A stretch of 64,000 nucleotides of DNA from Podarcis cretensis. Lineage: Eukaryota. The stretch's first letter is position 1; the number at the start of each line of letters is the position of its first letter. The stretch covers positions 17,112,001-17,176,000 of the forward strand of contig OX638158.1 of the NCBI GenBank assembly GCA_951804945.1. Direction: 5' to 3'. The notes beneath the pieces were generated by a model that did no database searches, was not told the DNA's origin, and saw only the letters and a program-made list of their open reading frames with translations. Position numbers and translations under genes: made by a program. Shown here piece after piece: positions 5,297-58,344 of the stretch.

Positions 5297-5343
5297 ATGG
5301 AAAGACCTGATAGGTTTCTCCTGCAATAGGCTCCGCTGATCAT
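5297..5343 (-). CDS. CALD1: Alternative first coding exon of caldesmon (brain/non-muscle l-caldesmon type), 47 coding nt
   Basis: ATG ATC AGC GGA GCC TAT TGC AGG AGA AAC CTA TCA GGT CTT TCC AT|gtgagt = MISGAYCRRNLSGLS. Similar to the chicken brain-type N-terminus (MISRSYCRQNLSSLSK, from memory). Same phase-2 donor as the 38074 exon. No upstream ATG for ~190 nt. Confidence 0.88.
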
Positions 5344-32558: not shown

Positions 32559-32962
32559 CCTCTCAGGCTGTCTGCTCCTGGGCCAGTGAGACAGCCAGCA
32601 AGGAAGGCCCATCTGCCATTTGCTTCCTTTTCTGCCTCCCTTTTGCTGCTGCATCTGTGACTGGAGCTGTTGGGAAGGCTGCACTGGGTTGCCATACGTC
32701 TGGGTTTTCCCGGACATTTTACCACTTAACAGAAATTTTCCCCAGATGCAATTTCTGAGGGCCCAATCCCAGATATGTCTGGGGAAACCCGGGTGCATGG
32801 CAGCCCTAGCTCTATAGCACCTCATTGCTCAGGAAAGTTGGGAGAGCAGGAGAACGTGCTAAAGAAAAGCCCATTTTACTCTTCTAGTTTTTGGGATTTG
32901 GTTTTGTTCAAAAGACAAAAACACAAAGACACTTCTTTTTAAAAAGCACTAAGCAACAACAC

Positions 32963-33306: not shown

Positions 33307-33552
33307 TAAGCAACAACACAGTCCTCAAACCAGCATTAATATTTCTGAAAGTCCAGCACAGCACAATATTTCCTCAATCCATCCCACCACAAAATGGTGG
33401 TTAACCATAGAGGATCCAGTAAGCCCAAGTTCAAGCTATGCTTCATACCCATAACTTCAGTTGGGAAGGCCAGTTTTATTCATTTATATTTATTTCAATG
33501 ACTATTTCAGGCTGGAGCACAACTTACTAACAGTTATAACACACATACTAAA

Positions 33553-33777
33553 AGTCAAAACAAAATAAAAGAAAAAAAATCCTTCCAGTAGCACCTTAAA
33601 GACCAACTAAGTTAGTTCTAGGTATGAGCTTTCGTGTGCATGCACACTTCTTCAGATACACACGAAAGCTCATACCTAGAACTAACTTAGTTGGTCTTTA
33701 AGGTGCTACTAGAAGGATTTTTTTTTCTTTTATTTTGTTTTGACTATGGCAGACCAACACGGCTACCTACCTGTAAC
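33553..33777. mobile_element. Penelope-like element remnant with inverted duplication (hairpin)
   Basis: Arms 33553-33638 and 33659-33745 are reverse complements (1 mismatch, 1 indel). 3' tail ggcagaccaacacggctacctacctgtaac. Flanked by direct repeat acatactaaaag (33543-33554 / 33776-33787). Confidence 0.75.
33622..33659 (-). ncRNA. Minimal type I hammerhead ribozyme (Penelope-associated), sense to CALD1 pre-mRNA
   Basis: Minus strand: GTAT-CTGAAGA-A-GTGTG CATG CACAC-GAAA-GC-TC-ATAC. Core CUGANGA/GAAA/UH, helix I GTAT:ATAC, helix II GTGTG:CACAC, palindromic AGCT helix III. Confidence 0.75.
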
Positions 33778-33817
33778 ATACTAAAAGGTAAGAGCAGAAA
33801 AACATGATCTATCAATA

Positions 33818-38073: not shown

Positions 38074-38144
38074 CTCTCTGCTTCCAGGCGCATCTCCTCT
38101 CGTTTTTGCCTCCTGAGCTCTCTGCGACGTTCAAAGTCGTCCAT
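38074..38144 (-). CDS. CALD1: Caldesmon first coding exon (smooth-muscle/fibroblast 'gizzard-type' N-terminus), 71 coding nt
   Basis: Reverse strand reads GCC ATG GAC GAC TTT GAA CGT...GCA GAG AG|gtgagt = MDDFERRRELRRQKREEMRLEAE(R), matching the vertebrate caldesmon N-terminus as I recall it. Strong Kozak (GCCATGG) and a canonical phase-2 donor. Too short for the ORF track. Confidence 0.97.
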
Positions 38145-55711: not shown

Positions 55712-57429
55712 GAAGGCTTTCTGGCAATGTTGTCTACTATCTCACTGTATTCTCATTCCACAAAGTTGTTCTTCATTTAGAATAAATGTTATTTTAAAGA
55801 AGATTAATAAATGCAGAGTTCCAAAAGCACACATACAACAGAATTCCTGCCACTAACTCTTCCTGCTGTGTGCTGAGAAAGAAGACGGGCAAATCCTGAC
55901 CACTATGGCATTCTGCTCTCCGCCTCTGAATTCCCGTGACCGGCAGGACCAACCAAGCTTGGAGTGTTTATGTCACGTTTTTAAAATCCATTAAAAGTGT
56001 GGATTTGTGGTCAGTTTGCATGCTTTGGATGTTGTACACGGATCTTTTGTTTCTTGACATACGCCGCCCCGCTCTCCACCCTGAACCATTTATGAAAACA
56101 AGATGTTGAGGCATTCTGGATTTCTTGGCAAAACTCATTTAAATAAGCATCTCACATAATTTCAGAAGCAAAGGTCAGGGGCAAAGGAGGCATGGCCCCA
56201 TGTGTCATAACGCAGGTTGTCTCAATTTCCCACAATGTGGAAGGGTGGGGGTCAATTTAAGGTGCAGCACAAGGGAAGCAAAGAGGGGGGCAATCAACCT
56301 TCCTCTGCAAATGATGTCGTCCCCCCCAAAAACCCTCCACCCCCCAGCCATCTCCCACTGGGGGTTACTTCTAGGCTCAGTACCCCACTGGGATAAAAAG
56401 GAGCTGAAACGAAGTGGTTTCTGGGAAAGGGAGGAAACATGGGCAGTGGAAGTTTTCAGCACCTCTCCCAATTCAAGTCATTGATGAGGATGAGGATGAG
56501 GATGAGGATGATGATGATTTATTATTTATACCCCACCCATCTGGCTGAGTTTCCCCAGCCACTCTGGGCGGATGCCAACAAAATATTAAAAACACAATAA
56601 AACACCAAACATTAAAAACTTCCCTAAGCAGGGCTGCCTTCAGATGTCTTCTAAAAGTCAGATAGTTGTTTATTCCCTTGACATCTGCTGAGAGGGCGTT
56701 CCACAGGGTGGGCGCCACTACCAAGAAGGCCCTCTGCCTGGTTCCCTGTAACCTCACTTCTCACAATGAATCATAGAATCATAGAGTTGGAAGAGACCAC
56801 AAGGGCCATCGAGTCCAACCCCCTGCCAAGCAGGAAACACCATCAGAGCACTCCTGACATATGGTTGTCAAGCCTCTGCTTAAAGACCTCCAAAGAAGTG
56901 AGACTCCACCACACTCCTTGGCAGCAAATTCCACTGTCGAACAGCTCTTACTGTCAGGAAGTTCTTCCTAATGTTTAGGTGGAATCTTTTTTCTTGTAGT
57001 TTGGAACCATTGCTCCGTGTCCGCTTCTCTGGAGCAGCAGAAAACAGCCTTTCTCCCTCCTCTATGTGACATCCTTTTATATATTTGAACATGGCTATCA
57101 TATCACCCCTTAACCTCCTCTTCTCCAGGCTAAACATGCCCAGCTCCCTTAGCCGTTCCTCATAAGGCATCACTTCCAGGCCTTTGACCATTTTGGTTGC
57201 CCTCCTCTGGACACGTCCCAGTTTGTCAGTGTCCTTCTTGAACTGTGGTGCCCAGAACTGGACACAGTATTCCAGGTGAGGTCTGACCAGAGCAGAATAC
57301 AGTGGCACTATTACTTCCCTTGATCTAGATGCTATACTCCTATTGATGCAGCCCAGAATTGCATTGGCTTTTTTAGCTGCCGCGTCACACTGTTGGCTCA
57401 TGTCAAGTTTGTGGTCAACCAAGACTCCT

Positions 57430-57467
57430 GTATCTGAAGAAGTGTGCATGCACACGAAAGCTCATAC
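57430..57467 (+). ncRNA. Minimal type I hammerhead ribozyme (Penelope-associated), antisense to CALD1
   Basis: gtat ctgaaga a gtgtgcatgcacac gaaa gc tc atac; identical to the 33622-33659 motif. Confidence 0.75.
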
Positions 57468-57556
57468 CAAGAACTAACTTAGTTGGTCTTTAAGGTGCTA
57501 CTGGAAGGAATTTTTTTTGTTTTGACTATGGCAGACCAACACGGCTACCTATCTGT
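57430..57556 (+). mobile_element. Penelope-like element remnant inserted in CR1
   Basis: Same sequence family as the 33553-33777 element. TSD aaccaagactcct at 57417-57429 and 57557-57569. Interrupts the CR1 ORF. Confidence 0.75.
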
Positions 57557-58344
57557 AACCAAGACTCCTAGATCCTTTTCACATGTACTGCTCTCAAGCC
57601 AGGTGTCACCCATCTTGTATTTGTGCCTCTCATTTTTTTTTGCCCAAGTGCAATACTTTACATTTCTCCCTGTTAAAATTCATCTTGTTTGTTTTGGCCC
57701 AGTTCTCTAATCTGTCAAGGTCGTTTTGAAGTGTGATCCTGTCCTCTGGGGTGTCCTCTGGGAATCCTGTCCTCTGAGGGAACCACCAAAAGACCCTCGG
57801 TGCTGGACCTCAGTGTCCGGGCAAAACGATGGTGGAGACGCTCCTTCAGATATACTGGGCCGAGGCCGTCAAGGGCTTTAAAGGTCAGCACCAACACTTT
57901 GAATTGTGCTCGGAAACATAGCCAATGTAGGTCTTTCAGGACCGGGGTTATGTGGTTCTGGCGGCCACTCCCAGTCATCAGCCTAGCTGCCGCATTCTGG
58001 ATTAATTGCAGTTTCCGGGTCACCTTCAAAGGTAGCCCCATGTAGAGTGCATTGCAGTATCCAAGCGGGAGATAACCAGAGCATGCACTACTCAGGGGAG
58101 ACAGTCCATGGGCAGGGACACCATTTCCCAGGCTTCACCAAAGCAAGAAACACTTTTGAGTAGCGCTCATGCCTTAAAAATTAGGCCTCTGAAGCTGCTG
58201 AAGTCCTCTGTTCCACTGGACCCCCTTCTTCATCATAAGTGTAGTGGGGAAAGAAAGGGGCTTGGCGGCAAGGAAGACTGACTGTATGACTTCAGCCGGC
58301 ATTGCTGGAGCTGGGGGGAAGCCCATTACAAACCAGAGAAGCAA

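Follow-up and report, generated by a model that had tools for sequence, protein, structure and literature searches.

The hammerhead motif at positions 33622-33659 of the window (the whole 64-kb stretch of DNA analysed here) belongs to a 221-bp insertion composed of two head-to-head arms of a Penelope-like element, apparently of the Neptune type, bounded by a 12-bp target-site duplication and located in an intron of CALD1. The inverted arms, a one-sided tail, the duplication, the copy number, a parent element encoding reverse transcriptase (RT) and GIY-YIG domains, and empty sites in relatives were all observed and form the basis of our reading. It is very probable that this is a recent, lineage-restricted insertion of a Penelope 5' end, in which the hammerhead is predicted to be folded shut by its mirror arm, so that cutting of the pre-mRNA and a choice between promoters are both unlikely. 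The motif is a minimal hammerhead ribozyme (min-HHR) in an inverted, tailed Penelope stub, which is an already known kind of locus.

The hammerhead and its mirror arm

The features of the insertion are as follows, in positions of the window.

33543-33554, no strand: left copy of the 12-bp target-site duplication, read from the sequence
33553-33661, minus strand: tail-less arm, a copy of the 5' leader that begins near the inferred RNA start, takes in the hammerhead and stops one base short of the element ATG, placed by alignment to a full-length tandem copy
33622-33659, minus strand: minimal type I hammerhead motif of a Penelope-like element, read from the sequence, with the predicted cut between 33626 and 33625
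33658-33775, plus strand: tailed arm, whose 5' end is truncated within helix II and which meets the other arm at a short ACAC/GTGT overlap
33746-33775, plus strand: 30-nt tail, present on one side, that opens with the ATG of the RT-endonuclease frame
33776-33787, no strand: right copy of the 12-bp target-site duplication, read from the sequence; empty-site contigs join 33542 to 33776

On the minus strand, positions 33659-33622 read GUAU-CUGAAGA-A-GUGUG(CAUG)CACAC-GAAA-GC-UC/AUAC. The core (CUGANGA, GAAA and UH) is complete and of type I topology, helix I comprises 4 bp (GUAU/AUAC), and helix II is predicted to form 5 bp with a 4-nt loop, inside a 14-nt palindrome. A real helix III is absent and the self-complementary AGCU stands in its place. 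An extra A between 9 and 10.1, the G10.1-C11.1 pair and the palindromic 15.2-16.2 (AGCU) are, with the core and the 4-bp helix I, shared with the metazoan min-HHRs described by Cervera and de la Pena (2014, PMC4209133), as are the location in the pLTR, the thousands of dispersed truncated copies and the occurrence of pairs on opposite strands. Nothing essential separates the motif from the traits given in that description, which names reptiles among the hosts; the min-HHR of Schistosoma has a longer helix II (7-8 bp) (PMC4209133), and the partner arm of the present insertion is broken inside helix II.

The preliminary description of this DNA, made from its letters alone, had recorded the complete core, helices I and II and a cut between 33626 and 33625, all of which were confirmed in the sequence. 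It had also assigned the motif to the Penelope-type minimal type I hammerheads, with a reduced palindromic helix III pointing to cleavage as dimers, in agreement with the traits in PMC4209133. The hammerhead sequence stood as claimed, but the ~90-bp inverted repeat and the thousands of copies had been left out. The hammerhead pattern has two matches in the 64-kb window against 0.11 expected, which is above chance. Rfam covariance models, run over 3.5 kb and over the 66-nt core region as a check proposed at that stage, returned no hammerhead family at E<=10, as is expected for a motif without helix III; the published min-HHRs were found only with a custom descriptor (PMC4209133). Rfam matches to mir-559, mir-3688 and similar models represented generic long-stem pairing under the gathering scores and were discarded. 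Another short element, MITE-like with ~35-bp terminal inverted repeats, lies at 32684-32815 and gave a mir-584 score below the cut-off.

The hammerhead forms the loop end of the ~90-bp inverted repeat (33553-33641 / 33656-33745), whose stem is near-perfect: the core alignment contains a single mismatch and a single 1-base gap. The minus strand of the insertion is predicted to fold into a single hairpin (-155.5 kcal/mol, z = -24). Of the parent open reading frame (ORF), the 221 bp hold the tail and no other part. In the CALD1 pre-mRNA the tailed arm (33658-33775) is the antisense arm and is transcribed before the hammerhead arm; since it is broken in helix II, it would act as a pure antisense arm.

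Long near-perfect stems are ADAR substrates, and the insertion might act as a long dsRNA hairpin which is A-to-I edited or trimmed to small RNAs, with a slight shift of CALD1 splicing or transcription. Such an activity draws on the length and near-perfection of the stem and on the sub-cut-off scores against miRNA hairpin models. However, the latter are the generic stem pairing already mentioned, the nearest known splice site is 4.4 kb away, the insertion is lineage-restricted and thousands of similar hairpins exist, and we give this explanation only a small probability. Within the preferred reading of an ordinary Penelope insertion, the long intronic hairpin could have small effects of its own.

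The insertion site was compared in related organisms using one contig per organism, directly in three of four cases. Single contigs of organisms C and G join 33542 directly to 33776, and a contig of organism E joins 33549 to 33790 with 2 letters between. The fourth case, organism D, is indirect, the depth at 33810 being equal to the depth of the left-flank contig; organism B, in which the left flank is uncovered, was excluded. Conservation at the orthologous site, a trait of domesticated hammerheads, is thus absent, the site being empty in C, E and G and, indirectly, in D. In two other samples of the same species, contigs begin in the tail, 23-24 bases inside the element, and extend into the right flank, which is suggestive of the presence of the insertion in other individuals of the species. 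We conclude that the insertion is recent and lineage-restricted.

The parent family and the origin of the insertion

The 29-nt hammerhead core is present in 8,485 exact copies in the 1.5-Gb genome and a relaxed-loop core in 9,250, whereas reversed-pattern controls gave 0 for both. Nearly all matches of the relaxed-loop search belonged to this young family; of the first 100, 4 differed in the middle stretch. Longer copies run upstream into the pLTR and the GIY-YIG frame, and the full-length parent, a tandem unit of 3,011 bp, has a frame of 925 codons and carries the hammerhead in its pLTR. The frame matched RVT_1 (E 1e-11) and, at its C-terminus, GIY-YIG (E 1.4e-4, at the cut-off), and it contains a CX4CxxC linker (CNKPRCQLC).

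A single ORF with RT plus a GIY-YIG domain at the C-terminus, a CX2-5CxxC linker, tandem pLTRs, an inverted truncated copy and a one-sided tail were all found. By the definition of Craig et al. (2021, PMC8557442), the parent is probably a Neptune- or Nematis-type Penelope-like element, an assignment made from these sequence characters; the CX2-5CxxC linker is described there as common to Neptune and Nematis. Tandem full-length copies with open 925-927-codon frames were seen at L174, L175 and L176, and the full-length family gave at least 150 scored matches at 94-100% identity. The Penelope-like family looks recently active.

Insertions of EN+ Neptune elements share with the present one and its parent the RT and GIY-YIG domains, the CX2-5CxxC linker, the tandem pLTRs, the inverted copy and the tail at one end (PMC8557442). 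EN+ Penelope-like insertions are described in that paper with an inverted 5'-truncated copy and a one-sided 30-40-bp tail; the present insertion differs from the Neptune examples in its size of 221 bp and in an ORF limited to the tail. In Poseidon of Anolis carolinensis (PAc; Frangieh et al. 2024, PMC11167929), both strands are nicked and extended, and two internal RT start sites bound the tail. The insertion resembles PAc in having a tail attributable to two RT start sites, with both strands presumably nicked and extended. PAc belongs to a different clade, and its ORF starts inside the hammerhead, whereas the ATG lies ~70 nt downstream of the cut site here.

One hundred arms were sampled as the first on contig C1, within its first 8 Mb and with one duplicated locus included. 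Head-to-head pairs less than 1 kb apart held 56 of these arms, and exactly one tail was present in 27 of 28 such pairs (read by eye). L001 and L002 (C1 ~92 kb and 167 kb) have identical flanks, which denotes a local segmental duplication. The exact 32-nt inversion junction of the 33553-33775 insertion occurs 69 times genome-wide, with a strand split of 24:45, and at least 12 of the 15 junction copies inspected by eye have their own flanks with short duplications.

This common junction would also be expected if the whole palindrome were a MITE-like unit, copied as such and not rebuilt at each insertion. Against this, the 15 inspected copies vary in the end of the tail-less arm and in subfamily letters, most of them having their own duplication, and many other junctions exist among the 100 arms. 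Moreover, a fixed RNA 5' end together with a 4-base overlap would recreate the identical junction repeatedly, which leaves the copied-palindrome explanation with a very small chance of being correct.

For a Penelope insertion rebuilt at its site, we infer the following course. The element protein would nick both strands and prime two cDNAs from internal start sites near the ATG. One cDNA would reach the RNA 5' end and retain the whole hammerhead, and the other would halt inside helix II, both being joined through the 4-base overlap. The presence of one tailed and one tail-less arm would be explained by two opposite-strand cDNAs, one per RT start site. In the CALD1 pre-mRNA, the product would be a ~90-bp intronic hairpin, discarded with the intron.

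Position and predicted folding in the CALD1 intron

Three further features of the window concern the host gene.

38074-38144, minus strand: ATG-bearing coding exon of CALD1, upstream of the insertion, reading MDDFERRRELRRQKREEMRLEAE and followed by a GT donor
5297-5343, minus strand: candidate alternative first coding exon of CALD1 (ATG...GT exon)
57430-57556, plus strand: another copy of this element end, not inverted and in antisense to CALD1, starting exactly at helix I

CALD1 is on the minus strand, and the hammerhead of 33659-33622 is sense to it. Seven of the nine genome matches to Caldesmon (PF02029) lie on the C10 minus strand, 15-40 kb past the left end of the window, the remaining two being weak and on C1. 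The distance from the GT donor of the ATG exon (38074) to 33659 is 4,415 nt, which bears out the sense orientation and the 4.4 kb given in the preliminary description. We regard the ATG-to-GT exon at 5343-5297 as a candidate for the alternative first exon known for CALD1, with an internal promoter.

Folding was predicted with ViennaRNA, as equilibrium and prefix folds in which proteins, editing and tertiary contacts are ignored. The bare 38-mer adopted the hammerhead secondary structure at P 0.12, the pairs of helices I and II having P 0.64-0.98 each. With 100-150 nt of flank, the hammerhead fold was 31.2 kcal/mol uphill, at P about 1e-22, and all bases of GAAAGCUC-AUAC were paired at P>0.99. 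In the predicted fold, GAAA, the cut site and helix I are all paired with the partner arm, and in growing-chain folds the upstream arm takes up GAAAGC before the cut site is synthesised. A monomer fold in genomic context is a trait of domesticated hammerheads which 33659-33622, at this probability and with no helix III, does not display.

The same behaviour was looked for in 58 intact copies sampled from the family. The hammerhead fold cost more than 20 kcal/mol (ddG) in 20 of the 21 copies with a close inverted arm, and less than 10 kcal/mol in 35 of the 37 copies without one. The exceptions were one copy with such an arm and a low ddG (3.4), and two copies without it and a high ddG. The second copy in the window (57430-57556) is flanked by a 13-bp duplication (57417-57429 / 57557-57569), and its plus-strand hammerhead should fold almost unhindered, at a predicted ddG of 2.3 kcal/mol.

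Four hammerhead cores are present in the 264 kb around CALD1, two per strand, and in this region no same-strand partner core for 33659-33622 was found within 73 kb. An older, non-inverted copy with GUU at the cut site is located on the CALD1 sense strand, 73 kb upstream (L153, C10 ~17,218,961, minus). Going by density alone, about 26% of 100-kb genes should contain a same-strand copy.

Published min-HHRs showed no cleavage as monomers and low cleavage as dimers (PMC4209133). The anole Poseidon hammerhead is reported to be cleaved only with the element's protein, RNA-seq ends being absent at the site (PMC11167929), and slow cutting of an intron by a hammerhead does not prevent its splicing (PMC2995048, citing Dye 2006 and Fong 2009). 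The motif resembles the RECK, C10orf118 and DTNB hammerheads of amniotes (PMC6155905, PMC10761166) in being type I, intronic and sense to its host gene. In contrast, conservation across classes, tertiary contacts and confirmed cleavage are described for those hammerheads, while the motif studied here is high-copy, non-conserved, without helix III and inside a hairpin. In Xenopus introns, related ribozyme repeats are common (about 43% of copies) yet under-represented (10.64898/2026.07.22.740005).

Cutting of the CALD1 intron during transcription, by the hammerhead on its own or as a dimer, with reduced output of the upstream promoter only, could appeal to a complete core placed in sense between two candidate first exons, to the helices formed by the bare 38-mer, to the domesticated intronic hammerheads of amniotes (PMC6155905, PMC10761166) and to the older same-strand copy 73 kb upstream, yet it keeps next to no probability in view of an antisense lock of 31 kcal/mol predicted to form during transcription, the missing helix III, relatives without the motif, thousands of other copies, the weakness of minimal hammerheads even as dimers (PMC4209133) and the tolerance of splicing for slow cleavage (PMC2995048). 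It had been proposed that co-transcriptional cleavage would affect only transcripts from the upstream promoter; the modelled lock (P about 1e-22 versus 0.12 for the bare motif) goes against this. The partner missing within 73 kb, the empty site in relatives and the reports of inactive or protein-dependent monomers and of slow intron cuts tolerated by splicing (PMC4209133, PMC11167929, PMC2995048) likewise speak against promoter-selective cleavage. On these models, control of CALD1 by the hammerhead of 33659-33622 is improbable. Had the motif regulated CALD1, it would have been a rare instance of promoter choice by a transposon ribozyme; the evidence points against this. The locus appears instead as an ordinary Penelope footprint, and it calls for caution, as an antisense arm can lock a ribozyme core that has been judged apart from its flanks.

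5' ends across the family and a putative RNA start

Among the 100 sampled arms, 69 end within 60 nt of the cut site, 33 of them at -32 to -38 and 0 at the cut site itself. Genome-wide, the C at the cut site is missing in 63 of 9,022 arms, at least 12 of the first 30 being point changes, and breaks at the cleavage site thus number at most 63. Homology breaks at -35/-34, the first base of helix I, in 1,850 copies, a few of which are point changes in longer copies. A G stands at this break in 74 of the first 100 listed (by eye), against 31% expected. Breaks at -37/-36 were found in 1,300 copies, with T in place of the element's A in 82 of the first 100 and an added GT in several; the T at -36 ends could stem from GU-repeat slippage by a telomerase-like RT, from an untemplated base or from overlap with the partner arm. 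Loose ends with unrelated flanks pile up at 33659 in 8 of 8 sequencing runs, and full-length copies have a TATATAGA box whose first base lies 33 nt ahead of position -34. Examples of ends at the first base of helix I are L174:2209-2246 and position 57430 of the window.

The 1,850 breaks at helix I, this TATA box, the extra G and the at most 63 cut-site breaks argue for a capped start at helix I and for copying of uncut RNA; reverse transcription of a cap has been reported to leave an extra G (PMC4038843). The element mRNA may accordingly be pictured, on a judgement that we hold in even balance and that draws on sequence ends, as a capped Pol II transcript which would start at the first base of helix I and be reverse-transcribed uncut. 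A 3' splice site (TTTCAG before helix I) is disfavoured as the cause of the pile-up, the copies ending there having no common upstream exon sequence. In D. virilis, an intron end maps to helix I, a passage of PMC4209133 in which the RNA start is not placed there. Neither an RNA start at helix I nor a cap-G footprint was found in a literature search on Penelope elements of partial coverage, and either may be in print; a search for these terms in PMC11167929, within the portion of its text covered, did not find them. The suggestion of an uncut template agrees with work in vitro on the anole element, for which uncleaved RNA was the main template (PMC11167929).

The cap and start reading adds nothing on CALD1 and touches the open question of the purpose of Penelope hammerheads, whose function is stated as unclear (PMC8557442). 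If it is true, the ribozyme, 34 nt from the cap and upstream of the ATG, would serve as a switch for self-decapping, or else it would cut read-through tandems; either way it would take RNA out of the transposition pool instead of producing its template. The ends of ~9,000 natural copies suggest where the RNA starts and that uncut RNA is the inserted form, and they may be useful to Penelope specialists.
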